From NCBI GenBank assembly GCA_040880105.1, contig JBBDJA010000030.1, forward strand, positions 1-62,438: a stretch of DNA of 62,438 nucleotides, in the 5' to 3' direction. Source of the DNA: Waddliaceae bacterium. GTDB taxonomy: Bacteria; Chlamydiota; Chlamydiia; Chlamydiales; SLOH01. Shown here one piece after another: positions 24,187 through 44,400 of the stretch. The first letter of the stretch is position 1; every line of letters starts with the position of its first letter. The translations under genes and the position numbers were made by a program. The notes under the pieces are model-generated. The model was not told the origin of the DNA. It saw nothing but the letters and a program-made list of their open reading frames with translations, and ran no database searches.

Positions 24187-24237
24187 AATAAGAATTTAAA
24201 TTATTTGAGCGATTACTTTTCTTGGTCTTACATGGTC

Positions 24238-25419: not shown

Positions 25420-25499
25420 AAAAAAAAGCAGAACCATTTTGATTCTGCTTTTTTTCTTATAATTGGAAGTTGAGAGACAGTTTCAGAACTTTTTATTGG
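25420..25499 (+). repeat. tmRNA-end junction repeat J3
   Basis: aaaaaaagcagaacc/gattctgcttttttt hairpin; tggaagttgagagacagtttcagaactttttattgg. Confidence 0.75.
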
Positions 25500-25505
25500 T
25501 CAGAC

Positions 25506-26888
25506 CTATATCGCCAATTGGTTTTCTATGCTCTCAATCAGTCGATGCAGCTGTCCCAATAGATAGAATGGCAAAGAGAGCAGAGTATATTCTACAGGGG
25601 AGCTGTCGGAAGTCTTCACCTGAATTGGAGTAATTGAGGGATAATCGGAATTTATCCTAACAGCTAGGCTCCTTCCTTTAAGATGCATGAATTGGTGAAG
25701 AGACTTGAGTGCCCCTGTACTACCAGCCTTCACTTCTATTGGAACAACTATATTCCCATGCTGAACAATATAGTCAATCTCAGCGTTTGCTCCTGAATCA
25801 GTGCGTTGCCAGTAGTTGAGCGAAGGGGAAGCATAGGGTGGAAACAAGGTTCTCAACTGCTGCCCAACAAGCTGTTCTGCAATGCCACCGCTGTTAACTA
25901 GGCTTAGTTCTGATACCGATCTCAGCTGGTGTAGAGAGAGTCCAAGTTCAGCGCTAGCTAGACCACAATCCAGTAGGATAACCTTGAAGAACTTGTTTTT
26001 GATCTCGGCATTTAGAGGTAAGCCATTTGCCGAGGTTGCAAATACGCGGTGACACACACGGGCTTTATCTAGCAAGTCGAGAGCTTGTTTTAGCGGCGGA
26101 GTATTAACCTCTGAATTGGCGTGTGTGTAGATGAATTTTTTCCCAAGCTGGCGTGGCACTGAAGCTAAAAGTTCTTCTAGGCGTGCAGTTGATAGGCGGC
26201 CTCGATATTTAGCGAAGTCCTCACGGTAAGTAGTCAGTAGATCAAAGTGAACTTGACTGAGTGCGTCGAGGTTTTCCTGGGAACTCCAGCATGAAATGGC
26301 GGCAGGCATGCCACCAACGACTAAGTACTCCTTTACAGCTGAGAAAAGCTGCGTATGAATGGCAGCAGGAATGGTTTTACCTAGCTGATATGCTTGCAGA
26401 AACTTCCGAAGTTCATGGTTGCCAATTGCCTCCAAGAATTCTTCGAATGATAGTGGTTCAAGATACATATAACCGATTCGCCCCACCGGCATGCTAAATT
26501 CATGCTCGGCCAAAGCAAAGTCTAATAGAGAGCCAGCAGCTACGACTGGGAGTTCCGGCATATCTTCAGCAAACCAACGCAGTTTAGCGAGCAGGTGAGG
26601 TGCAGCTTGTATTTCATCCAGGAACAATATGGTGTTAGAAGGTTCGATAACTTTACCAAGAGATGCTGCGATATTGGCAACGGTCTCTTTTGGTTCATTT
26701 GAGTCAAACAAGGATTCAAGATCTGGTCGCTTCTCAAAATTCAACTCAATTAGCCGTCTATCGGTCGACGCAGCCAAATCCCGAATTAGCCAAGTCTTAC
26801 CCGTTTGCCTTGCCCCTCGAATAACTAAGGGCTTTCGTGTCTTTGTATTTAGCCAGTCAATTAAGAAAGAGGTGCGGTCGCGCTTCAT
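25506..26888 (-). CDS. AAA_14 ATPase with DUF4143 (PD-(D/E)xK-like) C-terminus
   Basis: GARQTGKT, LFLDEIQ, GGMP, AEIDY...PIEVK. Confidence 0.9.
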   Translation of the reverse strand: MKRDRTSFLIDWLNTKTRKPLVIRGARQTGKTWLIRDLAASTDRRLIELNFEKRPDLESLFDSNEPKETVANIAASLGKVIEPSNTILFLDEIQAAPHLLAKLRWFAEDMPELPVVAAGSLLDFALAEHEFSMPVGRIGYMYLEPLSFEEFLEAIGNHELRKFLQAYQLGKTIPAAIHTQLFSAVKEYLVVGGMPAAISCWSSQENLDALSQVHFDLLTTYREDFAKYRGRLSTARLEELLASVPRQLGKKFIYTHANSEVNTPPLKQALDLLDKARVCHRVFATSANGLPLNAEIKNKFFKVILLDCGLASAELGLSLHQLRSVSELSLVNSGGIAEQLVGQQLRTLFPPYASPSLNYWQRTDSGANAEIDYIVQHGNIVVPIEVKAGSTGALKSLHQFMHLKGRSLAVRINSDYPSITPIQVKTSDSSPVEYTLLSLPFYLLGQLHRLIESIENQLAI

Positions 26889-27077: not shown

Positions 27078-27390
27078 TATGCGATTGTGCATCCAGCATT
27101 AATTCACAAGCTGATTTTATTGAATACAATGTCTCCCTCATCCGAAGAATTTTCTCTATTTGTGCAAGAATGGATGAAGCGAATGGCCCCATATCAAGAT
27201 GAACTCAAGGCAATTAAAAACAATCCAGAATTTACTAAAGGAAGTCTATCGCTTATTGAGAAATATATCGAATGATCTTCGGAAGATATTTTTATAATCC
27301 TGAGAAAGCAGATCTTCTCAATTTATATATGAGTCCAAAAGCGTCCATTGATGGAGCATAAGTTTATAAGATATTTACAAAGTCATTATT
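27063..27390 (+). pseudogene. Alpha/beta hydrolase fragment
   Basis: MQYAI.HP..I.KLILLN pattern following the nucleophile region; truncated with stops. Confidence 0.5.
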
Positions 27391-27786
27391 TTTTGAAAAA
27401 TGTTTTTGGGTTGGGGCTTTCAAACGAATAGATAAAGAAGGCTATGCAGTAGCGCGGCATATCTTCGGTGGCGAGCCTTCTGATCCTGAGATTTACAACT
27501 TTGTTCAGAATAATTACCAAGAGCTAGGACTTTGGAGAAGTTAGAAATATCGATGTACAAATCCAGAGAAAAAACCCAAAAAGAGTCCAGCGGGAAGTTC
27601 GCCGTGAAATGGAAAAAATAAAAGAAACCACTCGGTCTTCAACTTTAGCACAAGATTATATGAGGGAAGAACTTGAAAAAAAGAAAAAGGAAAGAAGAAA
27701 AGTCTCCAGCGCCCAGAAACAAGCTCGCATAGATGAGTAGTTTTCTATTAGGTAACAAAAAAAGCTGAAAAAAAGTGGTAGGTGAA
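27390..27786 (+). pseudogene. YjdF/DUF2992 family pseudogene
   Basis: FWVG, VARHIFGGEPSDPEIY, KNPKRVQR; frameshift and stops. Confidence 0.65.
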
Positions 27787-28235
27787 AGATTTTGGAAACT
27801 CTTCAAGAGTTTTGAAGGCATTTTTAGACGGCTACAAAGTCTGTAGGCATGTCGAATTCTAAGGGTTCTATCGATTGAGATTATTCGGTTATGTTTATAA
27901 TTTTAAAAGTTCTTCAAAAATCGTCATTTTTGGATAGCAATTGGTCAAGAAGCTAAAGTCTCAAATCCCTGTGTGTTGTTAGATTCATCTTGGAGCCTTT
28001 GTTTTCCGTTTTTTCCCATTTCACAACAGCAGGGTGGGTCACTCCAAAAAGTTTACCTTTGCTTAGAAAGGTTGCGTTAGCATTCCTTCACAAAAGATGA
28101 GTCTTTAAAATGTGGGCTGCTGCATCTTTTAAATACTGCGAACAGTTAATAAAAAATTTATTATTATTATTAATCATCTAATAAAAATACTTATATACTT
28201 GAAAAAAATGTTGTATTTCTTTAAACTAATTCATT

Positions 28236-29654
28236 ATGTTTAATACTGTCGGCGTTTATAGAGGGTCCTTTGATCCTCCTACTTTTGGTCACCTAGAAAC
28301 AGCTACCTGCTCTCTTAAGTATGGCGTTGATAAAGTCGTCATCGTTTTTACTGATAGTAATCCTTGTAAGCCTAACCGCAGCAGCGATGAAGTTCGTTTT
28401 GAACAGTTAAAAATATTATTTTATAGATGTCCATGGGCTTCAATAAGCAAAAAAAGCTTTAAGGCTACATTGCAAGGCCTTTTCGATGATCCCACAGTGA
28501 AAAGGGTTCGGTTAATTGTTGGCTTTGATCTCTTGTCAGTTAAATTCAGACCTGTAGCAAAGCCTAAAATTGTAGATTGTCTGGCTGTACCGAGAAACGA
28601 TTTTGATTTAGAATCCTTACCTAAAAGCTGGAACGGGCTACCTTTAGAAATCATCGATACTGAAGGGCTTTTGTATCGTCATACGAGTTCGTCACAGTTA
28701 CGTCTGGATCTGTCGGAGAATCGTCTTTGTGAAGCGTTACGCTTAGTGCCTCCAAATCTTTTTGAAAAGATTCTTGATAAGGGGCTTTATTCAATACCTT
28801 TGGTGCTAGTCGCTAATCGACTGCTAGCTAATTGCTCATTTGAATTGTGCGAACGCGGGTTCTCTGATGATGTTGTCATTTATATAAAGGACGAGTGTGG
28901 TAAACGTCAGCTTGTCGCAAAAATCTTTTCAAATCGTACTCGATTTAAAGCCGAATTTTCCGGCTATAGGAAGTTGCGCAAGCTGAATCTCAAGAGAATT
29001 AATATTCCGACAATTCATGTGGCAGAAGCTAATATGATCATCATGGACTATGTCAAAGGGAGCACTCTTGCAGAGATGATGGGCAGCAATTTGGAAGCAG
29101 TTCGTCTCTGTGCGAAAGCTAACCTTGAGCTTCACCAAGTGACGGCACGCGAATTAAAAAGCTATCCGAATGACTTGGAAGTTGTTGCCGGCAGAGTAGC
29201 GGCTTTATCTCAACGATATGCTGATGCTCTACAGGCCAGGTGTCAATCTTTAGTCCAGGATTTTTTAAAAGATCCGGGAATGCAAAGCGCTGTTCATGGG
29301 GATCCAAACCATTTTAATTGGATCGTAGACCTTGACGCGCGTACTGTTTTCTATATTGATTTTTCGAACTTCGATGAGCGTGGACACGCTATGAAAGAGC
29401 TGTATGAAGCTGATTTGTGTTTTTGGACAGCGGCGAAGCGAGTGGGGGGAATTGATAAGGAAGCTATTAAGTCGATACGAAACGAGTATATAAATGCATA
29501 CCTGAAAGAAGCGCCCTCATCAATGGCTACAGTAGCAGCACAAGCATATTTTAAGAGTTACTGGCAATTGCGTATTATCGAACATTTGCTTTTAGCACAG
29601 AAGCCGTGTGAGACGGAGCTTGTTGAATTTTTAGGTATTTATCAGGAGTGTTAA
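28236..29654 (+). CDS. Cytidylyltransferase-like (NadD/CoaD-type) nucleotidyltransferase fused to APH/choline-kinase-like phosphotransferase
   Basis: GSFDPPTFGH and SSS.LR; C-terminal VAK, HGDPNHFN, YIDF. Confidence 0.75.
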   Translation: MFNTVGVYRGSFDPPTFGHLETATCSLKYGVDKVVIVFTDSNPCKPNRSSDEVRFEQLKILFYRCPWASISKKSFKATLQGLFDDPTVKRVRLIVGFDLLSVKFRPVAKPKIVDCLAVPRNDFDLESLPKSWNGLPLEIIDTEGLLYRHTSSSQLRLDLSENRLCEALRLVPPNLFEKILDKGLYSIPLVLVANRLLANCSFELCERGFSDDVVIYIKDECGKRQLVAKIFSNRTRFKAEFSGYRKLRKLNLKRINIPTIHVAEANMIIMDYVKGSTLAEMMGSNLEAVRLCAKANLELHQVTARELKSYPNDLEVVAGRVAALSQRYADALQARCQSLVQDFLKDPGMQSAVHGDPNHFNWIVDLDARTVFYIDFSNFDERGHAMKELYEADLCFWTAAKRVGGIDKEAIKSIRNEYINAYLKEAPSSMATVAAQAYFKSYWQLRIIEHLLLAQKPCETELVEFLGIYQEC

Positions 29655-30586
29655 TGTTTAAAAAACTTTTAGTTTTGATTTTAGCTGTGAATGCTTTGTC
29701 AGCAGAGATTCCTTATTCTCTTGAGAATTTGTTAAACTATAATCAGCAATCTCATGGATTTCACGTTAATGATTTCGAAAAAGCGATGTGCTTTGGCAGA
29801 GAAGGTACTGATGAAGTTTTCTTTTCAGATAAGCATGTTATTGTTGTGAAAGATAATTTCAAACGATTCTGTGACGGTCTTGGAAAAGGTTCGAAAGAGC
29901 ATTCTATTCCACATATTATTCATTTAATTTGGCTTGGCTCCAACCCTTCGGAAACAGTATCTGCATGCTTTGATTCATGGAAAAAACATCATCCCGACTG
30001 GGTGGTGAAAATTTGGACCGACAAGGATATTCCCGGATTCAGTTGGAGCTGTGATCACTCAAGGATCAGCTATGAGCTAGCGGACACTTGGGCGGAAAAA
30101 GCAGATATTTTGCGTCTGGAGATTCTTTATAAATTCGGAGGTATTTACAGCGACGCTGATGTCGTTTGCTTAAACTCATTTGACGAGTTGACGGAACAGG
30201 ATATTGGTTTTTTTAGTGCATTTGAGCTTAACTACGTAGGAAAGCATTATGGCGAGCCCTTTTTTGTAGGCTCTGCGATCATGGGGGCAAAAAAGGGAAG
30301 CGAAGTAATGAAATTCTGCCTTAATAACCTCAAGTCTAAACAAGATGCTCCTGAAGAGGGAATTATTAAAAGAACAGGGCCGGGTCTCATAAGCCGCGCT
30401 TGTCAGTCTGTTTTGGATAGCAAAAGCGAGACTGTTTTAGTTCTTCCGTGCAGCTATTTATATCCGCTCCCCTGGAAAAAGCGTGATACAACTGCCGTTG
30501 ACGTGCTCGATTATGTTAGTACGGATTCTTTAGCAATCCACTTGTGGGATGGCTCTTGGTGCACACATAAAAAGAAGAATAAATAA
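29654..30586 (+). CDS. DXD glycosyltransferase (GT32/OCH1-like)
   Basis: IPHIIHLIWLG, KADILRLEILYKFGGIYSDAD, TGPG, HLW.GSW. Confidence 0.88.
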   Translation: MFKKLLVLILAVNALSAEIPYSLENLLNYNQQSHGFHVNDFEKAMCFGREGTDEVFFSDKHVIVVKDNFKRFCDGLGKGSKEHSIPHIIHLIWLGSNPSETVSACFDSWKKHHPDWVVKIWTDKDIPGFSWSCDHSRISYELADTWAEKADILRLEILYKFGGIYSDADVVCLNSFDELTEQDIGFFSAFELNYVGKHYGEPFFVGSAIMGAKKGSEVMKFCLNNLKSKQDAPEEGIIKRTGPGLISRACQSVLDSKSETVLVLPCSYLYPLPWKKRDTTAVDVLDYVSTDSLAIHLWDGSWCTHKKKNK

Positions 30587-30592
30587 CCGCAT

Positions 30593-31453
30593 ATGGTCTT
30601 AGATCCAATAGGTCAAATTTTGTTTCAGGCTTCGTCTATGTCTTGTCGTATTTCTCCTGAAGAGGAGGATGCTGCCATTCAGTACGTGGCTAAAGGCACT
30701 CTTGAAAAATTGCCTAAATCTCCTTGGGGGCAAACGAATGTTTACCTTCCTCCTGACTTATTGTTGGTAATTAAAGAATTAGGCCAGGACAGGGCTGTTC
30801 GTCGTGGGTGCGCAAATCTTAAAGCGACTGCACTTTGTCAAGAATTAGGGCTAAGGCATCTTATTGTTCCAAGGTTTGGTCTTTCGGGAGATTACACTTT
30901 TGAACAGCGTTTACCTGTAGCAGATGTAAATCTAAGGTCGCAAACTTCTCTATATGCTTCCCATCGCGACTGTTTTTCTCAAGCCGCAAAAGAGTTTTCG
31001 GCATTTTTGATTAAGTCCCATTTTCCTGATATTCTTACTTGGAGCCATCCATATCAGACTGAGGACAAAATACCTCTTGGAAGGTTCGATAATCTTCCTT
31101 TCTTTCTAAATAATGGCCAGGGGTGTGTGGGCCTTGTGGATTTAGGAGGATATAAAGTTAGACAGCAAAAACCTTCTGAACTAGAGATTGAAGAGTGCGT
31201 CAAAACTGCAATCGCTATCTTTCCGTATCACTTAGAAGAGGTTTGTGAAGCAGCTGGTGTGCCTTCCAAAAGATTTGAAGCTCTTACTAAAAAGACTCAG
31301 AATATCTTCGAAAAAATTCTTATTGGAAGTAAAGTCTTTTGTCGTTCTGTTTTCTGTAGAAAAACAGAAGAGGCAGACCTTGAGAAAAGCGCTCTCTATT
31401 ACAACTTTTATTTCAATAGAGGGGGTCAGCTGAGGGTAGTATATCACCAATGA
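30593..31453 (+). CDS. Hypothetical protein, possible atypical kinase fold
   Basis: LVIK, RFDNLP, GLVDL resemble kinase motifs; weak. Confidence 0.5.
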   Translation: MVLDPIGQILFQASSMSCRISPEEEDAAIQYVAKGTLEKLPKSPWGQTNVYLPPDLLLVIKELGQDRAVRRGCANLKATALCQELGLRHLIVPRFGLSGDYTFEQRLPVADVNLRSQTSLYASHRDCFSQAAKEFSAFLIKSHFPDILTWSHPYQTEDKIPLGRFDNLPFFLNNGQGCVGLVDLGGYKVRQQKPSELEIEECVKTAIAIFPYHLEEVCEAAGVPSKRFEALTKKTQNIFEKILIGSKVFCRSVFCRKTEEADLEKSALYYNFYFNRGGQLRVVYHQ

Positions 31454-33129
31454 GAGAGCTGTTATACTTTATTTTCTTTCTAGCAAGCCTTGCCTCTTCT
31501 TGCATAGCGTATGAATCCGCCCTTGAGCTTAAGTCATTTTATAAAATTGATGGTAAGAAGTTAATTGCAGGTAATCATAAACATTACGACCGCTTTCCCT
31601 ATGAAAGTAAACTGCATTTTGACTTGTGCTATAAGTTGAAGGATCTACCCTTAGCAGGGCAAATTCATAATGCCTACAAAGATCACCTACTCCCACTTAT
31701 CGTTCAAATTGTGGAAGAAGATGATCAGCAAAAGATCTATACGGCAATTTCGAAAGGGCTTATTGGGGTGTGCCATTACTTTGGTAGTCCTGACTATTCT
31801 CCGCTAGAACCCTTTAAAAAAGGTTTGAGGCTGCATGGGGCCGGCAATTGGTTAGAAGACAATAGTCAGGCAATCACAGCTTTCGTGAAGGAAGCAAGTG
31901 TATGTCAACATGTCGTTAGGTCAAGGTCTGCAGAAAATCCTTTTACTGTAGTGATTATTACTTCAACTTGCAGTGGGGGAAATCATACTGCAGCACTGTC
32001 TATCGCAAGTGAATTAGAGAGATATCCAAATACTCGTATTGTTTTAATTGACTTTGAAGAGATGGCCAACGAATTCGATCCAATTATGACCGCTACTGGA
32101 GTTTACTCTTATGACATGATTTACTCTAAGATCCTTCAGAAGACAAGCAACTTAGATGTGAACCGCGAGCGTAAACTTCTAAGTCGTGAAATACAAGGCT
32201 ATATTCCCAATAATATACTATATGAGCTCAAGGTGAAGGTCGCAGCTTTAGATCCGGATCTTATCATTTCGACGCGGTCCTACACCTGTGACGATATATC
32301 ATTATCGACTTTAGGGGTTCCATTTAGGCTATTCTTTCCCGATTACGAACTCAACCGCTCCCTTTGCTACTACTTTCGTTGTATTCCTCATGACTCCATC
32401 CGCTTTTGGGTTCCTACCTTTCAAGCAAGAATGTTTAAACCGTTGTTCGAAGAGTTGGGTTCCGATGAAAAATTAGACTCAATAGTTGAATCGGAAGAAT
32501 TGGTTAAAAAGATTAGCGTCGCTTTGGAGTTAAGTCTCGAACGTGCTGAGAAATGCTTTACGAATATTGGATATCCGTGTGAAAAATTTTACCCAATTGC
32601 TGATAAAAAGGCGTTGGAAAGAAAATGGGGAGTCGCTGAGGATGAGATCCCTGTGTTTGTCATGATGGGTAAAAATGGCACCCACACAATGCAGAAAATC
32701 TTTGATGATCTAAATTCCGAAGAGTCGACTCTTAGACTGAAAATATTCTTTCTCTGTGGAAATAATTCAGAGTTAGTTGAGAAGCTGCATAAGAGGGCCG
32801 GGAGGTCTATTGTCGTGTGTGGAATTCTTACTCCCGATGAGGTCAATGAGGTTATGAATATTTGTTCGATTGGGATTTCAAAAGCTGGCGGGGCTACTGT
32901 TTCTGAAGCAATTGCGTCCAAGACTCCACTTCTCCTTATGGATTCGTTTCCTTGGGAAGAAGCGAACGCGCAACATTTAGTCGAGTTAGGATTGGCTGTC
33001 AGGTTTAATCCTAAGCATTCTCTCAGTACACAGATTGTTGATGCGATACAACTTTTGTCCGACAATACAATTCCCATAGAAGATTGGCGTATACGTCTTC
33101 ATGAGCAAGTAAAGCCTTTAATCCAGTAA
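31450..33129 (+). CDS. GT-B glycosyltransferase (MGDG synthase/GT28-like)
   Basis: GGNHTAA, CGNN, ISKAGGATVSEA, E..NA. Confidence 0.8.
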   Translation: MRELLYFIFFLASLASSCIAYESALELKSFYKIDGKKLIAGNHKHYDRFPYESKLHFDLCYKLKDLPLAGQIHNAYKDHLLPLIVQIVEEDDQQKIYTAISKGLIGVCHYFGSPDYSPLEPFKKGLRLHGAGNWLEDNSQAITAFVKEASVCQHVVRSRSAENPFTVVIITSTCSGGNHTAALSIASELERYPNTRIVLIDFEEMANEFDPIMTATGVYSYDMIYSKILQKTSNLDVNRERKLLSREIQGYIPNNILYELKVKVAALDPDLIISTRSYTCDDISLSTLGVPFRLFFPDYELNRSLCYYFRCIPHDSIRFWVPTFQARMFKPLFEELGSDEKLDSIVESEELVKKISVALELSLERAEKCFTNIGYPCEKFYPIADKKALERKWGVAEDEIPVFVMMGKNGTHTMQKIFDDLNSEESTLRLKIFFLCGNNSELVEKLHKRAGRSIVVCGILTPDEVNEVMNICSIGISKAGGATVSEAIASKTPLLLMDSFPWEEANAQHLVELGLAVRFNPKHSLSTQIVDAIQLLSDNTIPIEDWRIRLHEQVKPLIQ

Positions 33130-33922
33130 GCCTTCTCCACTTTGTTTGACGACTCATGCCATCAGCCAAAAAAATAGCTTTAAGGTGGGGGTGTTCTTGG
33201 CGAAAGTGCTTTAAAAATCGTTTGCAAGCATTGCGTTCACAATCATTTTTCTCTAAACCATCTTCTTTAAGAATAGGCTCCGGGCAAAGGGGGATAACAT
33301 TCTTTTGCTTGGGATGTACGAGACAGACTCCAAACATTTGATGGTAGTAGGAGATGCTTCTGTCGCGAGATTTTTTTTGGTAACAGGAGGGACAACTGAT
33401 CTTGTTTGAATGAAACTGTCCTGTTCCATCTCCAGAAAGCAATACATGTCTATCCAAAAAATCATATTTTACGAGGCCTTTTCCCCTTTGAAGAACTGAA
33501 AAAAAAGTTTTTTAAAAGCAGGACGAAGATATTTGGTATCTACGGCGTCAAGACGTTTTCTAAGATAGGTGTCACTGGGAGATTAATTTACATGGTAAAT
33601 ATCTCTTAGATATTTCTCAGTCGCAGTATCTTCTTTTTGCCTTTCAAAGGCAAGTAGAGAAGGACACTTTAGCTCAAAAATAGCAAGTCCTGACATTAAA
33701 TGATCCGTAAGAGAGATAGATGGCTCTCGATTAAAAGTGGCAATATCAGGAATTTTGTCGAATTCTTTGTAGATTGTGCGGATCAGCCCTGGGGCACACT
33801 GAGATGCTTGCGGAAGGACAAAGTCATAGTTAAGGCAACAATTTAAGGGTTCATAATGCCTCACAAGTTTACAAAACCTAATTTTAAATTACCTCCAAAA
33901 AATCATCCATTGGGAATTGCTG
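33127..33922 (-). mobile_element. Degraded IS with frameshifted DDE transposase
   Basis: Fragments LMSGLAIFELKCPSLL, DGTG..HS.KI.C..C, YYHQM, KNDCERNA, LADG; candidate end CAGCAATTCCCA at 33911-33922. Confidence 0.75.
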
Positions 33923-33993
33923 AGCAGTGCGTAACTCAGCTTTAACTAGTAGAAATTTTCGAGTTAAATTACTTGTTCTATCTCATTAAATAA

Positions 33994-34068
33994 GAAAGGC
34001 TTCACTCCTTGGAGTGAAGCCTTTCATTGGGATGGAGATGGAGAGACACGTTCAGAACTTTTGATTGG
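33994..34068 (+). repeat. tmRNA-end junction repeat J4
   Basis: gaaaggcttcactcc-tt-ggagtgaagcctttc hairpin; tggagatggagagacacgttcagaacttttgattgg. Confidence 0.85.
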
Positions 34069-34086
34069 GTTCAAATGGCTGAAAGT

Positions 34087-34230
34087 TGGCCGTATTCCGG
34101 CGGATACAGCCAATTCCTGTCTAATACGGCCAAAAAAACTTGTATATTTGGCCGTATTCTTGTTAAAATGGCCGTATTAGAGAAACAAGGTGGCTGTAAT
34201 GAGTTTGCGCGACAATAAAATGGCTGTATT
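34087..34230. promoter_or_regulatory. Cluster of seven TGGCYGTAWT-like boxes upstream of and at the start of the Fic gene
   Basis: Direct at 34087, 34149, 34169, 34191, 34221; inverted at 34103, 34123. Confidence 0.6.
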
Positions 34231-35545
34231 AAGACAATTAGGACTAGAGTCGGAACCAATTGGCTTGCCCGAGCTTATGCTTCGACTAGGTGAAGGATTT
34301 AAGGAGCGCTCGGTTAGACGATGGCTAAGTCTTTTAGTTGAAGAGGGCTCGGTTAAAAAAATAGGTCAGAAGCGAGGGACCAAATATTTTGCAGCTAGTC
34401 GTTCGGATGAAACAGTCGTTGATGTGAGTAGCTGTTTTAGTTCCGCGAGCTTAAAGGCTATTGAGGGTATAAAGAAGCCATTATTTGAGCGGCAGCCGGT
34501 TGCATACGCAGATGATTGGTTTGATGACTACCAACCCAATTTAACATACTACTTACCAGAAGCATTGCGACAACAACTGTTGGCATCGGGTGGGCGTGCG
34601 AATGAACAGGATCCTGCAGGCACCTATGCTCATCGAATATTCAACAGGCTGATCATTGACCTCTCATACAACTCCTCACGTCTTGAAGGCAACACCTATT
34701 CCCTTCTCGATACAGAGCGTTTACTTCTTCATGGCGATATTGCTGAAGGGAAGCTTGATGAGGAGAAGGCGATGATCCTGAATCATAAAGAGGCTATTCG
34801 CCACCTTGTTGACAATGCATCAAAAATCGAAGTCTCTCGTAATGTTATCTGTACCCTGCATTACCTCTTGTCAGATGGTCTTGTTGAATCTTCAGAGGTC
34901 GGAAAGGTTCGAAAGCATGGCGTGCGTATCGGCGGGTCAACCTACATGCCCTTTGAAGATCCAAGGAGATTAGATCTGCAATTGGAGAAGATCGCCGCAA
35001 AGGCAGCGAAGATCCAGAATCCTTATGAACTGAGTTTTTTCTTATTGGTTCATGTGAGCTACTTGCAGGCCTTTGCTGACGTCAATAAGCGGACCGCTCG
35101 GTTGTGTGCCAATATTAGTTTGATCAAAGGGAACCTCGTTCCGCTTGCGTTCAGCGATGTTCGTGTCGAGGATTACATGTCAGCAATGATAGTTATTTAC
35201 GAATTGCAGAATGTGCAACCATTGATCGACCTCTATGTTTACTCCTATCTGCGGACTTGTGCCGCCTATGACTCCACTGTGAAGGCAATGGGTTTTGACG
35301 AAGTGCGTGTAAGGTATCGACAAGAACGCAGGGCTGTCGTGCGAGAGGTTATTCTAAGGATGTTAAAAGGTCAGTTGATGAAGGAGTTTGTGGATGCAGA
35401 AGCAGCGTCCCGCGTCCTTCCAATAGTTCAAAAAGCTTTCGCCGAAGATGTATTAGAAGATTTAGAACAAATAGATGAAAGCCGTTTGGCTGGACTAGGA
35501 GTGACTTCGGAACAGCTCAACGCATGGAAACGATTAAATCCTTAA
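34190..35545 (+). CDS. Fic family protein with N-terminal wHTH
   Basis: SSRLEGN inhibitory motif; variant Fic motif LQAFADVNKRTAR. Confidence 0.9.
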   Translation: MAVMSLRDNKMAVLRQLGLESEPIGLPELMLRLGEGFKERSVRRWLSLLVEEGSVKKIGQKRGTKYFAASRSDETVVDVSSCFSSASLKAIEGIKKPLFERQPVAYADDWFDDYQPNLTYYLPEALRQQLLASGGRANEQDPAGTYAHRIFNRLIIDLSYNSSRLEGNTYSLLDTERLLLHGDIAEGKLDEEKAMILNHKEAIRHLVDNASKIEVSRNVICTLHYLLSDGLVESSEVGKVRKHGVRIGGSTYMPFEDPRRLDLQLEKIAAKAAKIQNPYELSFFLLVHVSYLQAFADVNKRTARLCANISLIKGNLVPLAFSDVRVEDYMSAMIVIYELQNVQPLIDLYVYSYLRTCAAYDSTVKAMGFDEVRVRYRQERRAVVREVILRMLKGQLMKEFVDAEAASRVLPIVQKAFAEDVLEDLEQIDESRLAGLGVTSEQLNAWKRLNP

Positions 35546-35951
35546 AAAGATGTATCAAAGATGAACAATAACCTTAAAGAACAAGAATGGATTGAGGTGA
35601 TTGGAAAACGCTTTCACTTGATATACTGAGATGTAAAATGCCTCGAGGCCATAGTTGAATCCAGCTTTCTCAATTGGCAAAACATAAATCGTTAAGTAAA
35701 ATCATAGATGTTTGATTGATAAAGGCATGTAAGGGAATGGCTCTACTAGTCGATGTATTAGAGTGAAAGCTCGGGGTTTATACCAGAGTTCGTGCTTGTC
35801 TCAAATCTGCAACGAGTCTTTTTCCTTCGTCTGTTAAAACGTACTCTTCCCAGGTATATAAACTATCATTCCATTATTATTTTCTGATCCGCAGCTTGTT
35901 GTGCCATTCTTTGCAAGTAGATTGCCTTTTAGAAGGTATAGGACCTGGATT

Positions 35952-36251
35952 TCAATAAGACCTGGTAGACAAATTGTGTTTTCTTTTGGATCGTCGCAAA
36001 AAACGTATAAGATTCTTCTTGTAGATTTGAAGGGCATTCTGATCTATTTCATTTGTGCGATGGTGTCGCGCATGGCATTTAGTGCAAAGTGCAATTAAGT
36101 TGTCAAAGGTATGTTTCTTACATTTTTCATAGGGGATATTATGATGTATATCGATAGGATGATCTTTGCACGTGGGTATAGCGCATCGATGACCTGCTTC
36201 TATTTTAATTTGCCTTTTAAGCTTTTCTGGAATAGATGGGCGGCTTGTCAA
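35952..36251 (-). CDS. HNH endonuclease (probably truncated)
   Basis: EAGHRCAIPTC, HH, NLIALCTKCH. Confidence 0.8.
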   Translation of the reverse strand: MTSRPSIPEKLKRQIKIEAGHRCAIPTCKDHPIDIHHNIPYEKCKKHTFDNLIALCTKCHARHHRTNEIDQNALQIYKKNLIRFLRRSKRKHNLSTRSY

Positions 36252-36265
36252 TGTGAGTTCCTTCT

Positions 36266-36348
36266 AAAAAAAAAGCCTATCAAATATTGATAGGCTTTTA
36301 ATATTTGGTAACATTGGAGGTGGAGAGGCAGATTTAGAACTTTTGACT
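36266..36348 (+). repeat. tmRNA-end junction repeat J5
   Basis: aaaagcctatcaa/ttgataggctttt hairpin; tggaggtggagaggcagatttagaacttttga. Confidence 0.9.
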
Positions 36349-36420
36349 CTACCAAATTGCATCTTTTCAAGCCTTGGGAAGATGTGCTATCCTGTAAAGT
36401 TCTCTAATCTTGGATAATTT

Positions 36421-36897
36421 ATGACAATCACTTTGGAAAAAGCCACTTCTGAAGATGCTGAGAAATTGCATGCTATACAAATAAAATCCTTTTTGCCTCT
36501 TTTAGAAAAATATCAGGACCACGAAATTAACCCAGCATGTGAGCCTATAGACAAAACCCTACAAAGAATAAATGATCCTTTGAAAGGCTTCTATAAGATT
36601 TTGAAGGATAATATTTTGGTTGGTGGGATTGCAATAAAGCATATATCCACTGAGATTATATTTTTAGGACCCATTTTTATTGATCCTATTTTTCAAAACC
36701 AAAAGATCGCTCAAACAGTCTTACAACTTATTGAAAATATATTTCCTTCTGTACATTTCTTTGAGCTACGTACTCTAGCTCAAGAAAAAGGCAATATTCA
36801 TCTCTACGAGAAAATGGGGTATGTGATTCAAGGGGAAAGTGAAAAAATAAGTGATTCGGATGAGATTGTGTTTTTTAGAAAAAAAATAACGCACTAA
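36421..36897 (+). CDS. GNAT N-acetyltransferase
   Basis: IFIDPIFQNQKIA, NIHLYEKMGY. Confidence 0.85.
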   Translation: MTITLEKATSEDAEKLHAIQIKSFLPLLEKYQDHEINPACEPIDKTLQRINDPLKGFYKILKDNILVGGIAIKHISTEIIFLGPIFIDPIFQNQKIAQTVLQLIENIFPSVHFFELRTLAQEKGNIHLYEKMGYVIQGESEKISDSDEIVFFRKKITH

Positions 36898-37082
36898 ATA
36901 GCGATAGTTTAACTTTACAAGAGTTAATTTTATTGATTCCTTTAATGCCATATTTGACATAAATGTACTCAGCTAAATCGCGCAATAAATATTGGCCATC
37001 AGCAGGTTTCAAAATGGGATGATAAGGTGACGCTGTAGATAAAACTTGGGCTGTGCCTATACAATCAATTGCCTTTTTAGAA

Positions 37083-37318
37083 GCCTTGCCCCTCGAATAA
37101 CTAAGGGCTTTCGTGTCTTTGTTTTTAGCCAGTCAATTAAGAAAGATGTGCGGTCGCGCTTCATATTATAGACCCCATTTTCTTGATTCTAGCCAAACCC
37201 TCTGTGTAAGCCTAGAAAACAGGGGGATGTTTTGAAGGTTATCCTTAGAAAGCTTTGAGTACTGTAGCCTTATAGCGGCCAAATTATTCGGGATCAAATA
37301 GTCCTAGATGTAATGCAG
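37083..37318 (-). pseudogene. Duplicated 5' stub and promoter of the AAA-DUF4143 ATPase, copy 2
   Basis: Encodes MKRDRTSFLIDWLKTKTRKPLVIRGAR then breaks off; matches 26807-27077. Confidence 0.85.
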
Positions 37319-37358
37319 ATAGCTAAAAATTGGCTTTATTGAATGAAAAGGAATTATG

Positions 37359-37437
37359 AAAAAGCCTATCAAATTGATAGGCTTTTAAATTTTGGTAACG
37401 TTGGAGGTGGAGAGACGCATTCAGAACTTTTGAGTGG
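37359..37437 (+). repeat. tmRNA-end junction repeat J6
   Basis: Same hairpin as J5/J8; tggaggtggagagacgcattcagaacttttgagtgg. Confidence 0.92.
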
Positions 37438-37484
37438 GCGATTTCCAGAATTCGACTGTTGGCTCTGCCTGTTGTTTCAACTAT

Positions 37485-38010
37485 TCAAGATCCAAGCAGA
37501 ATGTTTCTTTGATGAAATTCGGCTTGGCCAAGGTAGAAGCAAAGTAGACATGCTGGGATCCTCAGGAGAGCCTTCTCTCCCTGATCATCTACTTTTACAC
37601 GACCGAGATCGTTCGGTGATTTGGTGGCTATGAATCCTTGGGTGATCTGCTCTTTTTTCTTGATCAAATCAATGAGGCCTGGAACATCTCTAGCCTCCAC
37701 GCCTTGCGCCTGATATTTGATCTCAAATGGGAATATGGCGCCATCTAACTCTACAATTAGATCCACCTCCTTTTCCTCTTTTGTGCTACGCCAGTAACTA
37801 AAGCGTGCTTGATTTGTACGGCAATGTGACCATAGATGTCCAATCACCGCCGTTTCTACGCATTGACTCAGTGCTAATGGGGTCTCAAGGATTGTCTTAC
37901 CTTTGATTAATACAGCTGGTGCTATTGCAGGATCACTCAGATAGATTTTATTTTTCCCGCGTAGAACTTGCTTGCCGTAGCCATACGGAAGGAGTTTATA
38001 AATAAGGTGT
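37485..38010 (-). pseudogene. 3' fragment of an ATPase-DUF4143 gene
   Basis: KIYLSDPAI, AVETAV, YWR...EVDLIV...PFEIKY; 5' part missing at J7. Confidence 0.75.
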
Positions 38011-38078
38011 CAGAACCCAGAGATTCTGCTTTCTAGTCTAGATGGAGGTGGAGAGACAAGTTTAGAACTTTTGAATGG
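38011..38078 (+). repeat. tmRNA-end junction repeat J7
   Basis: cagaacc..gattctgctt hairpin remnant; tggaggtggagagacaagtttagaacttttgaatgg. Confidence 0.88.
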
Positions 38079-38261
38079 AATCTGTGGAGCCAAAAATGGC
38101 CGTATTTTTGAGAATGCGGTCAAAATTCTTCAAAATTGGTCCCATCTATGTAGTTAACTTGCCTAATTGTGGTATTTTATGAGGTTTTATACTGACTTAT
38201 ACCTATTTATATCTGCTTTCAGGTATAAATGGATATAGATACATATAGATAGAGGTACCAC

Positions 38262-39458
38262 ATGGATCCAATCAAAAATCCCTATTCGCCAGGAGCAGGC
38301 ACTCCACCGCCGGAGCTTGTGGGTCGCGACCCCATTCTCAAGCAAGCCGATATTCTATTGGGGCGCATTCAGGCTGGCCGTCCAGAAAAGAGCATGCTGC
38401 TTACTGGTCTCCGAGGTGTTGGAAAAACGGTGTTACTAAATGAAATGCAGCGGCGGGCAGAAGCAATGGGTTATAAGACTATTTTTGTTGAGGCGCATGA
38501 AGATAAACCACTGGGGCTGTTGCTTGCACCACACTTACGCCAATTACTTTATTCGTTGGATCGAATGGCTAACGTTGAGAGCAAAGTGAAGCGTGCTCTT
38601 GCTGTTTTTCGAAGTTTTTTGGGACGGTTAAAGGTAACCTATAACGATGTTTCAATTGGTTTGGATATAGAGCCTGAGATTGGGACGGCTGATAGTGGCG
38701 ATCTTGAAATTGATCTTCCAGAGCTGATGGCTGTGATTGGTGAGGCTGCACAGGATCGTGAGTGTTCAGTAGCAGTCTTTATTGATGAAGTCCAGTATTT
38801 AAGCCCCAAAGAATTGGGGGCTCTTATCATGGCCTTGCATAAGCTACAACAACGACAACTACCTGTGTTGTTATTGGGTGCCGGCCTTCCTGTTTTACCA
38901 GGGCTTGCCGGGCAGTCCAAATCTTATGCCGAGCGCTTGTTCAGTTTTCCCGACGTAGGTGCTTTATCAAGATCTGACGCAGACAAAGCACTTCAAGATC
39001 CAGCGAATAAGCAGGGAGTGAGCTTTGAAGAGCCCGCACTCGATCGAGTATATGAACTAACCCTTGGGTATCCCTATTTTCTTCAAGAGTGGGGGTATTC
39101 AGCTTGGAATCAAGCAGAGACATCACCTATTACGAGCACAGTAGTAAATGATGTCTCTCCAATTGTGATTCACAAACTAGACGAGAATTTCTTTAGGGTG
39201 CGGTTTGATAGGCTTGTTCCGAGTGAAAAGCAGTTCCTCCGTGCAGTGGCAGAGCTGGGATCTGCTCCCCAACGAATTGGTGACGTGGCCGAGATGATGG
39301 GAGTCGAGACCGGAAGCTTGAGCCCTCGTCGAGCAAAGTTAATTAGGAAGGGAATGATTTACAGTCCCTCACATGGTACCATAGCTTTTACAGTCCCCTT
39401 ATTCGATCAGTTTATGGTTCGAGCTATGCCAGAGTTCTCAAATAAGCTTAGAAAGTAA
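38262..39458 (+). CDS. AAA ATPase (AAA_16-like) with C-terminal wHTH
   Basis: NPYSPGAG, GLRGVGKT, FIDEVQ, GYPYFLQ. Confidence 0.88.
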   Translation: MDPIKNPYSPGAGTPPPELVGRDPILKQADILLGRIQAGRPEKSMLLTGLRGVGKTVLLNEMQRRAEAMGYKTIFVEAHEDKPLGLLLAPHLRQLLYSLDRMANVESKVKRALAVFRSFLGRLKVTYNDVSIGLDIEPEIGTADSGDLEIDLPELMAVIGEAAQDRECSVAVFIDEVQYLSPKELGALIMALHKLQQRQLPVLLLGAGLPVLPGLAGQSKSYAERLFSFPDVGALSRSDADKALQDPANKQGVSFEEPALDRVYELTLGYPYFLQEWGYSAWNQAETSPITSTVVNDVSPIVIHKLDENFFRVRFDRLVPSEKQFLRAVAELGSAPQRIGDVAEMMGVETGSLSPRRAKLIRKGMIYSPSHGTIAFTVPLFDQFMVRAMPEFSNKLRK

Positions 39459-39537
39459 AAAGCCTATCAAAATTTGATAGGCTTTTAAATTTTGGTAATG
39501 TTGGAGGTGGAGAGACGAATTCAGAACTTTTGACTGG
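39457..39537 (+). repeat. tmRNA-end junction repeat J8
   Basis: aaaagcctatcaaa/tttgataggctttt hairpin; tggaggtggagagacgaattcagaacttttgactgg. Confidence 0.92.
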
Positions 39538-39868
39538 AGTAGAATAAAGATCTCAAGTGTATTCAATTCTTCTAATTCCACCCAGGCAGCAATGGGAGTC
39601 CCAGGTGATGGAACGAGCACCTTGGAAAAACGACGGGGTATGCTCCTTAAATAGAAGCGGTACCTATCCATATTAATGAAAATCGTCCTAAAGAGAGCCC
39701 TAGATAGTTTGAGGCTTACTGCAGCTTTAATAATTAAGCAACTGATTGAAAATAAGTCACTTAAACACTATTTTTCGGCAACTTGCTCAAAAAAACATCT
39801 TTTTTTTCTTACACTTTATTATCGATATTCGATAATATTTGATCGTTATTCAATAAATACGGGGTTAT

Positions 39869-40444
39869 ATGAAAACAAAAAGAAAAATAAATATTTTGAG
39901 CCGAGTTTTCCGAGTTATAGCTATACTGCAAGCAATCGAAACGGCATGGGGTGGAATTAGTCGTTGGATGGCAGCTCCCTTCTCAGAGCCTGCTCTTCCT
40001 CAAATTAGCATGATATTTGTTAATTCTTCTTTAAGAACCCAGATTTCTTCATTAAGTGAAATGGCTGTCTCGTTAAAAGTTATTGGGGTGTTGGACTATT
40101 TTACACCAATTATTGCAAAAGTTTTTATATATGTATTTTTAGCTCTATTATTCACAGAGTATAAAAAGGGAAATATTTTTTCTGAAAAAGCTCTTAAATT
40201 GATCCGAAATGTGGGTTGTGTGGTGCTTGCTGGAACATTATTATCCTTAATTTATTCGTTTGTAACATACAATCTTCTTCCCGACCAGTTTCCAATTATA
40301 CACAGGAAGCTGCAAGGCATAATGATCTATGGTCCGATTGGCTATAGTTTGAGATTTATTACAGGGGGTCTTTTCATCATATTTATTAGTTGGATAATGA
40401 ATATGGGGAAAAAGCTTGAGGATGAACAGAAGTATACGGTGTGA
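39869..40444 (+). CDS. DUF2975 family membrane protein
   Basis: Four TMs, G.IFS, G..L.DEQ..TV C-terminus, HTH gene follows. Confidence 0.8.
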   Translation: MKTKRKINILSRVFRVIAILQAIETAWGGISRWMAAPFSEPALPQISMIFVNSSLRTQISSLSEMAVSLKVIGVLDYFTPIIAKVFIYVFLALLFTEYKKGNIFSEKALKLIRNVGCVVLAGTLLSLIYSFVTYNLLPDQFPIIHRKLQGIMIYGPIGYSLRFITGGLFIIFISWIMNMGKKLEDEQKYTV

Positions 40445-40445
40445 T

Positions 40446-40652
40446 ATGCCAATATTAATTAATCTTGATGTTGTTTTATCAAAAAAGAAAATCCGTTTAA
40501 AAGAGCTTGCTGCTGCAGTTGACATTACGGAGCAAAATCTGTCTATCTTAAAAACAGGTAAAGCGAAAGCAATCCGCTTTAGTACTCTTGAAGAAATATG
40601 CAGAGTGCTTGACTGTCAACCAGGCGACATTCTTGAATACAAAAAGGATTAG
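40446..40652 (+). CDS. Cro/CI-type HTH regulator (YozG-like)
   Basis: NLSILKTGKAKAIRFSTL..IC..L.CQPGDIL. Confidence 0.92.
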   Translation: MPILINLDVVLSKKKIRLKELAAAVDITEQNLSILKTGKAKAIRFSTLEEICRVLDCQPGDILEYKKD

Positions 40653-40999
40653 TATATAAAGGGGTAAGTGAACTTCTAACTAAGCGTCTAAAAAAGTTAG
40701 AAGGTCCCAAAAAACGTCAGATCGAGATTGCTGAGGAGATGAAAAACCATGAGAAGGCTGATCAAAACTATTATGTCACAGCGAATATGGTCCTGAATTT
40801 AGCGGCTCGTGCGAGAGAAATCTTCGAAAGTTCTGAAGTGGATGAAAAACGGGAATTGCTGAATTTGGTGTTTCAGAACTTAAAATTAGAGGGTAAAAAA
40901 ATGCTCACGGAAGACCGTGAGCCATTTTCTACTATGATTGGATATAAGGATCATCCAACCAATTGGAGGTGGAGAGAATCGAACTCTCGTCCTTGGTAA
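40653..40999 (+). pseudogene. C-terminal remnant of a large serine recombinase reading into the antisense of the tmRNA 3' end
   Basis: LA.RA.EIFESSEVDEKRELLNLVFQNL.L.G; ends WRWRESNSRPW across ssrA; no catalytic domain present. Confidence 0.7.
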
Positions 41000-41358
41000 A
41001 CTCCATACTAACCTCTACATGCTTAGCACCCTGTAAATATTCCGACCCCCTGCAGAATGCGCCGGTTGAGGCCGAAACGCTTCATTTAATCTTGACTAAG
41101 GCTCCCTAGAAGCTACGGAAACCAGAGTCATACCAAGTGTATAACAACAGACCCCAAAACCCTTGGTGAAATTTCAGGCTGTCGTGCGATTGTTGCGGTT
41201 AAGCAGCCATCGCAAGTGCAGGCTCTTCTGAAACAGAAAAGTCTACAGCAAAGATTTTATCTTCTGCATTTGTGTTTTTTCCGGTGTTCTTAAAGAGGTT
41301 ACCGAAATCCCCTGCATGCAATCAATACTTTGTTTCCTAGTCGAAACCAGTCACCCCC
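40964..41358 (-). ncRNA. ssrA: tmRNA
   Basis: 5' GGGGGTGACTGGTTTCGAC; 3' GAGAGTTCGATTCTCTCCACCTCCA; tag ORF 41199-41267 AEDKIFAVDFSVSEEPALAMAA*. Confidence 0.95.
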
Positions 41359-41456
41359 AAAAATGATTAAGGATAGTTGATCACACTTGTATTATACCAT
41401 TGTATGGACTTTTTGTATGGGATTTTGTAAAATTTTAGAAAAATTCCTGGGAAATC

Positions 41457-44400
41457 ATGTTTAAGAAAGTGACAAAAGAAAGTTTTGGTGAACGAGAGCG
41501 GAGAATTCTTGCCTTTTGGGAAGAAAATACGATCTTTGAGCGCTCTGTAAATGAGCGTGAAGGGAGACCTGAGTTTGCTACATATGACGGACCTCCGTTT
41601 GCAACAGGCCTTCCGCACTATGGTCACTTTCTTGCAGGAACGATTAAGGATGTCGTTTTAAGATTCAAGACAATGGAAGGATTCCATGTGCCGAGGCGCA
41701 ATGGATGGGATTGCCATGGACTTCCGGTGGAATACGAGGTGGAAAAGGCGCTCGGTCTTTCAGGCGCGCACTCAATTGAGGAGTTTGGCGTTGGCAAGTT
41801 CAATGAAGAGTGCCGAAGCATCGTCTTAAGATTCGCAAGCGAGTGGGTCAACCATATGTCGCGTATGGGAAGATGGGTAGACTTCTCAGACACCTATCAC
41901 ACAATGGATCCAACGTTCATGGAGTCAATCTGGTGGGTATTTAAAGAGCTTTGGGATAAAGGACTTGTCTATAAGGGTTACAAGGTGATGCCGTTTTCAG
42001 CAAAGCTTGGAACACCACTTTCAAACTTTGAGGCAGGTGAAAACTATAAGGAAGTCGATGATCCCTCTTTGACAGTTGCCTTTGAAGCAGGGGAGAATAC
42101 CTACTTACTTGCTTGGACGACGACTCCTTGGACATTGATATCAAACCTTGCCTTGATGGTCGGACCTGAGATTGAATATGTCAAAGTGCATGATAAGAAA
42201 AGCGGTAAACTCTACATCTTAGCTGCCTCTCGACTCTCTGAATATTATAAGAGCCAAGACGAATATGATGTTGTGGAAAAGCTGTCCGGAAACGACCTTA
42301 TAGGAATGCGCTACAAACCTCTTTTTGACTATTTTAGTGATCGAGAGGCGTTTCGCGTGATTGCGGACAACGGCGTTGGTTTGGATGAAGGAACGGGAAT
42401 TGTGCATTGCGCTCCGGCGTTTGGTGAGGTTGACTTTGAGGCGTGCAAACGTGAGGGCATTGAGCTTGTCTGCCCGGTGGATCAAAATGGCGCCTTCACT
42501 AAAGAAGTTCCCGAATATAAAGGGTTATTTGTTAAGGATGCGGATAAAGCGATCATCAAGCGTTTAAAAGAGCAGGGGAGCGTTGTTCATCACGGGACTT
42601 GTCATCACCGCTATCCCTTCTGCTGGCGTTCAGATACCCCGCTAATCTACAAGGCAGTTAGCACCTGGTTTGTCGCTGTTGAAAAGATTAAGGGTCGGTT
42701 GGTTGAGCTAAATGATCAAATCCACTGGATGCCCGAGCACCTGAAGCATGGGCGATTTGGAAAGTGGTTAGAAGGGGCTAGAGACTGGGCGATTAGTCGT
42801 AACCGGTATTGGGGAACGCCGATCCCACTTTGGATATCTGAAGAGGGTGACCTCTACCCGATCGGCAGTATTCAAGAGCTCGAGGAGTTGACAGGGGAGA
42901 CCATTACAGATCTTCACCGCCACTTTATCGATGACCTGACGTTTGAGAAAGACGGAAAAGTGTATCACCGCATCCCCGAAGTTTTTGACTGCTGGTTTGA
43001 GTCGGGGTCGATGCCGTATGCGCAGAACCACTATCCGTTTGAAAACGAGATGCTGTTTGAGAAAATCTTCCCGGCCGATTTTATTGCAGAAGGTCTTGAT
43101 CAAACTAGGGGCTGGTTTTATACCTTAACAGTCTTAGCAGGCGCGCTTTTTGATAAACCTGCGTTTAAAAATGTGATTGTCAATGGGATCGTCCTTGCCT
43201 CCGATGGCGCCAAGATGTCAAAGCGGCTAAAAAATTACCCGGATCCGATGGAGGTTGTGGAGAAGTATGGCGCGGATGCGATTAGACTCTACATGCTGCA
43301 TAGCCCGGCGGTTCGCGGTGATGACCTTCGCTTCAATGAACAGGGAGTTGAACTTGTGGTTCGGCAGATCCTGTTACCACTCTGGAATGCTCATACGTTC
43401 TTTATTACCTATGCAAATATCTACAATTGGAAACCCTCAGAAAACCCAAGCCATCCTCAGGCTGAAATTGATGGCTGGATTTTATCCAGACTTCAAAAGC
43501 TTGTTCACGATGTCCAGCAAGGCATGGACAACTACGACCTAAGCCGAGCGGTAGAGCCATTTGTGCAGTTTATCGATCAATTGACAAACTGGTACATCAG
43601 ACGCTCAAGACGCCGCTTTTGGGCTGAAGAGGAGAGCCAAGATAGAAACGAGGCGTTTGAGACATTATACCAAGTGATCTTAACTGTAACTAAGGTGACA
43701 GCGCCATTTATTCCGTTTATTTCCGAGGCGATCTACAAAAATATAAGAGCTGAAAATATGCCGGATTCTGTTCACCTTTGCGATTACCCGCTCTATCAAG
43801 AGTCTTTTAGAGACCACTGCTTAGAAGAGGCAATGGAATCTGTTCAGATTGCAGTGACACAAGGCCACGCGCTTCGCAAAGAGCATAAAATTAAAGTCCG
43901 ACAGCCGCTTGCAAAAGCCTATGTAGCGTGTAGCAATACGTCAATCGGTGAGTATGTGGGAAGTCATCAACAGCTCATTCTCGATGAGCTAAATGTTCAC
44001 CTAGTTGAGTTTGTCGAAGATGAAACGCAATTTGTTCGGTATGTGGCAAAACCAAACTTTAGACTGCTCGGCAAACGTGCCGGGAAGCAGATGAATATCT
44101 TAAAATCTGCGATTGAGAGCCTAGAGCGCTCAGAGCTTGAGTTGTTAATGCAAGGAAAGACCATATCCATTGATTTAGAAGGTAGTCCATTCCCTCTTGC
44201 TCCTGAAGAAGTAGTTGTCGATCGCGAAGTGCGAGAAGGTCTAGTAGCCTCAAGCGTTCATGGGATTACAATTGCACTTGATACGACATTGAATGAAACA
44301 CTCATCCTAGAAGGACTTGCGCGCGAAATTGTCAATAAGATCAACACAATGCGCCGCGATGCAGACTTGGATGTTTCTGATCGGATTGAAGTAAAGATGG

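Follow-up and report, generated by a model that had tools for sequence, protein, structure and literature searches.

Serine integrases are major tools of genome engineering; as a rule, a separate factor determines the direction in which they act. A layout in which an integrase gene runs across the attachment site of its own element is already in print for DsiB of the Dehalococcoides ssrA islands, the Roseburia prophage Shimadzu, the streptococcal rumA ICEs and the Myxococcus phage Mx8. According to the accessible sections of the DsiB description, the Dehalococcoides islands enter ssrA in the middle of its T-loop (333/334), their repeat is 20 bp long and their motif reads TTCAGRSMGMRKCCA, and the enzyme possibly attains full function only in the circular state or where an adjacent island supplies its 3' fragment (PMC3146451). 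For Mx8, the available part of the source reports from experiment that the integrated form is less active (PMC4701971). Among openly accessible full texts, we found nothing on the Chlamydiota recombinase family described here and no test of a serine-integrase tail swap; the accessible portions of PMC12884075, PMC10083194 and PMC548262 hold nothing relevant.

The window analysed here is a stretch of 62,438 nucleotides from a Waddliaceae bacterium, part of a 1.67-Mb assembly of 32 contigs (genome 90 per cent complete). It carries tandem islands at ssrA that are bounded by repeats of the 3' end of that gene. The integration target is the tmRNA gene (minus strand, 40961/40964–41358; ARAGORN; Rfam RF00023, 143.2 bits, 40961–41358), and the plus-strand attL core TGGAGGTGGAGAGA (40964..40977) is the reverse complement of the last 14 encoded bases of the tmRNA. 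Copies of this core with 0–2 mismatches in the first 13 bases recur at 39502, 38043, 37402, 36315, 34033 and 25464. On the plus strand, the frame at 40964 reads WRWRESNSRPW and a stop, and each of the six copies opens an orphan tail. The closest attR-type junction is 39502 (WRWRDEFRTFDW), with a tail of 50 codons (WRWRDEFRTFDWSRIKISSV..., 39502..39654). It is followed by the tails WRWRDKFRTFEW... (38043..38111, 22 codons), WRWRDAFRTFEW... (37402..37512, 36 codons), WRWRGRFRTFDS... (36315..36407, 30 codons), WRWRDTFRTFDW... (34033..34218, 61 codons; tail and downstream gene are the same as in locus L090) and, at the farthest junction found, WKLRDSFRTFYW... (25464..25562, 32 codons). All seven junction translations listed in the original prediction are present, and the six att copies translate as W..RD.FRT..W. 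In a search of the whole assembly, the combination of core and tail motif was confined to one stretch of 15.5 kb. Contigs of two sequencing runs (a possible source of the DNA) span every junction without differences, and misassembly is therefore unlikely; no joint at an att core is listed among these contigs, which cannot show absence.

Next to the tmRNA, a large serine recombinase gene survives as a 3' remnant (40708..40999, plus strand), corresponding to approximately residues 402–489 of a 501-aa enzyme. The remnant consists of the last ~85 codons, has an in-frame ATG at 40739, and continues, as had been predicted, into the tmRNA antisense as ESNSRPW and a stop. Its descent from a recombinase is borne out by 88–90 per cent identity to 501-aa proteins (P0002–P0004) that carry PF00239, PF07508 and PF13408, and 132 longer homologs were found for the stub protein (P0001). 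The stub by itself matches no Pfam family; its full-length homologs (P0002 and P0024) have the Resolvase, Recombinase and zinc-ribbon domains in one chain. Because DNA homology begins at about 40708 (blastn from 40707/8; tblastn 40688–41002), ~400 codons have been deleted, and the loss is recent judging from the remnant's 93 per cent nucleotide identity to locus L004 and a pN/pS of 0.04. PF07508 has no match across the 90-per-cent-complete genome and tblastn returns the stub alone, so that no intact recombinase was found; the local copy is dead, and the system persists here only as a fossil. Such stubs are ordinary in the family: counting the window, 63 sites with an arm had sufficient flank, and they comprise 18 full-length genes, 20 stubs with scattered breakpoints and 25 sites without a detectable gene.

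Judging from record titles, most members of the family come from Chlamydiota, and more distant ones from candidate phyla; the only other genome of the same genus (57 per cent complete) gave no match. Intact relatives are elements of 6.6–10.8 kb (both ends seen in 11 of 32 loci), and the genes that recur near the recombinases include primase-helicase types, a SpoVG-like gene and MerR/HTH_17. The Neochlamydia sp. S13 plasmid (NZ_AP017978.1; L249:15001–16344) encodes a 63-per-cent-identical recombinase, annotated as a shorter CDS, and provides a cultured host for the family. Three metagenome bins titled 'Chlamydia trachomatis' (L019, L029, L033) also carry the recombinase; they are probably environmental bins with loose labels.

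Do recombinases of this family exist in two C-terminal forms, as predicted? Among 121 proteins (the stub and 120 homologs among the matches listed), 95 end in tRNA or tmRNA antisense, 7 in W...D.FRT and 19 in something else, which places attP within the recombinase gene. Adjoining RNA genes confirm tmRNA, tRNA-Tyr, tRNA-CAT and tRNA-Leu as targets, and distant family members target tRNA-Asn and others. Intact homologs run through the att core, the reading frame crosses it so that the C-termini differ between the two states, and genes ending in ...PTNWRWRDAFRTFDWSRIKIPSV occur naturally; the stub is of recombinase origin and its homologs do not stop short of the core; the opposite outcome on either point would have counted against the original prediction. 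Short tails of the tmRNA type mostly terminate at ...SRP or a few residues beyond it, some distant homologs end shortly after RT (L064, P0218), and many full-length chromosomal genes with antisense tails of 10–15 residues look intact. Counted from the Trp, the median length is 28 codons for long tails versus 13.5 for antisense tails.

To avoid selecting on the tail, we gathered sites by the core alone. Of 201 genomes of the phylum searched with the core pattern, 189 gave a match, and the set also drew on stretches from multi-match genomes among the matches listed and on 69 metagenome loci (left arm plus core). The 254 distinct sites include 60 tmRNA-type junctions with a recombinase end on the left; the tmRNA comes next in 51 of them and a tail arm in 9. 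The tail at 39502 is of the WSRIKIPSV type (61 per cent nucleotide identity to the L143 tail over nt 37–120). In L143 and L161, tails of this type form in-frame fusions with recombinases, and from this likeness the 39502 tail is likely the native tail of the stub. In several other loci and proteins (L006:11459, L058, L065; P0010, P0017, P0023), the recombinase end is followed by a tmRNA fragment up to the T-loop and then by foreign DNA (ESNTVEW, ESNSMSF), which suggests another type of element that inserts upstream, in the T-loop.

The two ends also bear on where strands are exchanged. Both ends are available for 12 loci; the attR sequence deviates from that of the host RNA at core positions 6–13 in seven of them, at position 1 in one, at positions 2–5 in none and at position 0 in five. 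In L026, L027, L029 and L054, attR has Leu as its fourth codon, and attL follows the host T-stem. If paired ends derive from one element, and with drift allowed for, these differences place the crossover within core positions 1–5, where strand exchange is likely to occur, with the GG at 40965–40966 as the best guess. The symmetry scan of attP weakly favours the GG at positions 2–3: its best inner score belongs to the axis that separates core positions 2 and 3, a score not clear of those of other axes. Identity of the core ends after 14 bp, short of the T-loop. The swap would then begin near the first Trp; WRWR(D/E) would be kept because both recombination partners share it.

Past the conserved DNA, the displaced tails have retained an open frame. 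Within codons 13–17, the tail frame of 74 independent arms contains a single stop, versus 27 and 26 in the other two frames (shuffle mean 25.4, minimum 14). A second set of 87 orphan arms, which adds tRNA-Tyr arms, has two stops in the same interval (column-shuffle mean 14.8, minimum 7) and nine in codons 13–22 (mean 33.2, minimum 23); depletion is absent in codons 23–32 of these arms (48 stops versus 45.6). Nucleotide information is only 0.0–0.9 bits in this region, and the depletion extends over ~10 codons in the recombinase frame only. Codon 15 is hydrophobic in 80 per cent of arms, by way of five different residues. Across 13 related pairs of tails, pN/pS in codons 13–22 is 0.68, versus 0.61 and 0.65 in the other frames; with no frame-specific signal, the exact residues are not visibly selected. 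As far as the predicted frame is concerned, the orphan tails at the junctions are indeed kept open to about codon 22, and on this comparative evidence the displaced tail is a protein extension selected for length and hydrophobic pattern rather than for exact residues.

In degron switches of the mycobacteriophage type, one form carries an ssrA-like tag at its end. We reject a degron of this kind on the long tails, of which 2 of 87 end in AA and 7 in A; control of stability, which had been suggested for this locus, finds no support in the form of such a tag.

Closer to the core, the constraint acts on DNA. Ninety-one in-register arms were taken from 117 non-RNA sites, the 26 sites without the motif being set aside; codon 7 is TTC in 85 of them, codon 8 AGA in 84 and codon 9 ACT in 82, and synonymous sites are nearly fixed over about codons 7–10. 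Near-fixed third positions in the FRT codons point to constraint at the DNA level. The variation had been described as codon-like, which holds only in part, given that TTC, AGA and ACT hardly vary synonymously. When the arm is aligned to the tmRNA side, the best match is found at a shift of 5 bp (6.06 of 9 expected matches, versus at most 3.99 elsewhere), and the GAAC motif of the arm lies 5 bp farther out than its tmRNA counterpart. For comparison, attP and attB of the Listeria integrase have a zinc-domain motif offset by 5 bp, according to the accessible text (PMC3783163); with GG as the centre, the motif here is ~1 bp farther out than in that enzyme. The left arm has no mirror of the motif, which was seen in the right arm only; AGAAC is present too in the Saccharibacteria locus L078. 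The near-fixed synonymous sites together with the shifted match indicate that FRT is probably a binding site first, that is, mainly a DNA signal resembling a zinc-domain binding site, with binding itself putative.

We hypothesize, with a rough probability of 60 per cent, that the long tail favours integration or raises activity, with a short form that is weak or excision-biased. The attachment site of the mobile element, here now decayed, lies inside the element's own large serine recombinase gene, and integration at the 3' end of the tmRNA would swap a predicted-helical tail of ~28 residues for a short antisense-encoded one. The crossover would fall in core bases 1–5, at the first Trp codon, where the core is the complement of the acceptor-stem end. 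The element arm would copy the target for binding of the recombinase domain, leaving WRWR(D/E) to survive the swap, and TTCAGAACT ('FRT') would be the zinc-domain binding motif, 5 bp farther out than in the tmRNA, so that the arm may be used twice, as binding site and as codons. The long form, encoded by the circle, would be proficient in integration and the short form, encoded by the chromosome, weak or excision-biased, and a small excisionase-like protein would probably act alongside. An excisionase-like MerR/HTH_17 gene is found near 10 of the 32 intact recombinases, and direction may therefore be set conventionally.

Structural models bear on what the tail could do. The model of a natural long-tailed homolog (P0024) has the serine integrase fold with a coiled coil (Foldseek E 8e-22 to 9dxd; VIA Z 18.0 and rmsd 14.9 over 446 aligned residues against 9dxh). 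With an alignment of 32 tail-bearing rows, AlphaFold gives pLDDT values of 85/84/72 across residues 481–510 and helices at 487–495 and 505–512; with an alignment dominated by antisense tails and containing few long ones, the values are 62/44/33 and the tail is disordered. The rise from 44 to 84 at residues 491–500 compares alignments that differ in depth and diversity and is no clean control. Structures of SPbeta-type, Bxb1 and Listeria integrases align only to residue 471–481, and three PhiC31 chains extend to 488–498, at high rmsd. The long tail is thus predicted to fold as helices, and in the 32 long-tailed sequences a tail Arg, which may be imposed by the DNA motif, is the sole invariant column. 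A doubtful but serious alternative is that such a tail serves only folding, solubility or enzyme amount, in which case the swap would dampen activity and leave direction unchanged. Selection on length and hydrophobic pattern, with exact residues free, fits this alternative, some elements have excisionase-like genes, and a stability idea was put forward for Shimadzu in the accessible part of that preprint (10.1101/575076). The long tails, however, have no ssrA-like ending (AA in 2 of 87), and the invariant Arg and ordered helices in homologs 31–74 per cent identical suggest a defined contact.

It is improbable that both tails are neutral, the overlap being a by-product of compact att placement and the conservation of the arm being all DNA recognition. 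The nearly fixed synonymous sites of codons 7–10, the motif shifted by 5 bp and the flat pN/pS all speak for neutrality, as does the intact appearance of many chromosomal full-length genes with antisense tails; in the accessible text of their paper, McMurdie et al. list such a trivial explanation for DsiB (PMC3146451). Stops are depleted ~10 codons past the conserved DNA, in the recombinase frame only, which disfavours it.

Only at 40964 does a recombinase end lie on the left of a junction in the window; the other six are placed behind hairpins of -8.6 to -25.4 kcal/mol. One terminator-like hairpin of repeat family D5 (39457..39487; fold -15.5 kcal/mol) lies left of the 39502 junction, and related hairpins lie left of 37402 and 36315. 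The cargo between 39502 and the stub includes plus-strand genes for a DUF2975 membrane protein (39869..40444; PF11188, E 5e-9) and a Cro/C1-type HTH protein (40446..40652; PF13443, E 4e-23). Across loci, non-recombinase left arms fold at -15.1 versus -7.0 kcal/mol for shuffles. Two hairpin families are also found directly behind full tmRNAs (20 and 8 of 101), so an element-borne origin of the terminators is not needed; tyrosine integrases were rejected as a source of the terminator-led junctions, since 0 of 48 neighbouring ORFs match a tyrosine integrase family. It is highly improbable that the repeats serve as sites of cassette recombination or as small-RNA elements, independent of the recombinase coding sequence: most tail junctions do follow terminators and border cassette-like cargo, and an intact recombinase end is on the left in just 9 of 100 and a relic arm in 7, but the arm is fused in frame to a recombinase in at least seven proteins and at nine junctions, and an Rfam scan of 24000–42000 found no family besides tmRNA.

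The predictions about excision fared accordingly. That the junctions are native recombinase tails agrees with the recombinase end at 40964 and not with the six that follow terminator hairpins; excision would restore a tail here onto a stub only, no intact enzyme having been found in the genome; and different tails from different junctions are possible in principle, as tandem recombinase-to-tail fusions in L012 illustrate, whereas a circle from this locus would carry the stub alone. The array records, in fossil form, that integration at ssrA took place repeatedly, and six spent tails are left behind. We searched for excised circles: the arm pattern had no match in viral contigs, and only five distant loci came up; no circular Chlamydiota element was found, the two phage records that come closest represent forms integrated at a tRNA, and none of eight contigs checked has terminal repeats.

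Chlamydiota ssrA arrays (window 25464–40963; L007, L107, L108, L120, L125 and others) consist mostly of integrase-free segments of 0.2–9 kb, with a host-type tmRNA terminator at the head and a tail arm at the close. Their cargo is cassette-like (Fic, AAA_14/DUF4143, AbiEii, RhuM, GNAT, HNH, glyoxalase, methyltransferases). A bolder and tentative reading, which we think unlikely to hold as a whole, is that a helical tail of ~20 residues docks on the zinc/coiled-coil domain as a directionality module that drives integration and is clipped at the DNA level upon integration, and that the terminator-led ssrA cassettes retain spare tails in usable condition, because excision at a cassette junction would yield a composite circle that needs that tail to complete its recombinase. 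The locus would then be an integron-like array driven by a serine recombinase, and its cassettes would pay for their transport with a piece of the enzyme.

Several further features of the arrays were observed. The last recombinase codons before the core (40934–40961) form a hairpin just behind the tmRNA, also in L095, L108, L136, L164 and L178; in recombinase-less relics the same hairpin is now a tighter, terminator-like stem, with the loop inverted in L178. A second class of right arm after the core is a GC-rich repeat, WRWREALAAGE..., often multicopy (L115:1364, L117, L142, L170, L098, L103, L176) and possibly a small mobile repeat. Within the window, non-coding stretches at 26807–27077 and 37083–37320 are 82–89 per cent identical, each near an AAA_14/DUF4143 gene or fragment (25506–26888, intact; 37485–37847, a C-terminal piece). 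At 21561–23700, a gene of ~240 aa and its upstream region are tandemly duplicated (72–96 per cent identical) without att cores. Two minus-strand ORFs without a Pfam match at 33023–33864 give the impression of transposase pieces, and one sequencing run has a joint that skips 31013–33865, with only 22 letters on one side. Inside the distal segment, 28236–33129 holds a four-gene cluster of a cytidylyltransferase-like/kinase fusion, a DXD glycosyltransferase, an unknown protein and a GT28-like protein, and a phytochrome-like kinase and a heme-oxygenase-like gene are located at 15181–18373.

If the long tail does favour integration or raise activity, the enzyme's own reaction, by removing that tail, would offer a further means of setting direction or activity. 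This hypothesis is directly testable, given the size of the family and the fact that the DNA itself reveals both forms. An enzyme of this family that is cloned from a chromosome has the antisense tail, and it may prove weak or inactive in assays as long as the tail has not been rebuilt from attP.

Comparison with the known systems, made from the accessible parts of the sources cited, brings out both the shared layout and the differences. With DsiB, the family shares tandem ssrA islands bounded by 3'-end repeats and a gene that spans att (PMC3146451); in this comparison with a published description rather than with sequence, DsiB islands insert mid T-loop with a 20-bp repeat, whereas here the crossover would lie at the acceptor-stem end, with 14 bp of identity. 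The DsiB module has six genes (dsiA, recF-like, parB, mom and a large protein among them), in contrast to the primase-helicase, MerR/HTH_17 and SpoVG-like neighbours seen here, and its families have no match in 16 cluster representatives of recurrent genes upstream of the 32 intact recombinases. In Shimadzu, the site also lies inside the integrase gene and the two forms differ in the last 20–22 residues; it is a tailed phage, described without an evolutionary test of the tail (10.1101/575076). The rumA ICEs share the att-in-integrase layout in conjugative elements with a protein-coding target (PMC4701971). Mx8 IntP likewise has attP in the integrase gene and a shorter-tailed integrated form of altered, lower activity, but it is a tyrosine recombinase that exchanges 112 residues for 13, rather than ~28 for ~13 as here (PMC4701971, PMC6070905). 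The attachment sites of the Listeria (LI/A118) integrase are alike near the centre, with the zinc-domain motif shifted by 5 bp, and differ in that the motif here is in the right arm only (PMC3783163). Whereas the C-termini of DsiB were seen as divergent (McMurdie et al. 2011), the displaced tail is kept open here; the present analysis adds quantitative evidence that this tail is selected and that FRT is probably a DNA site.
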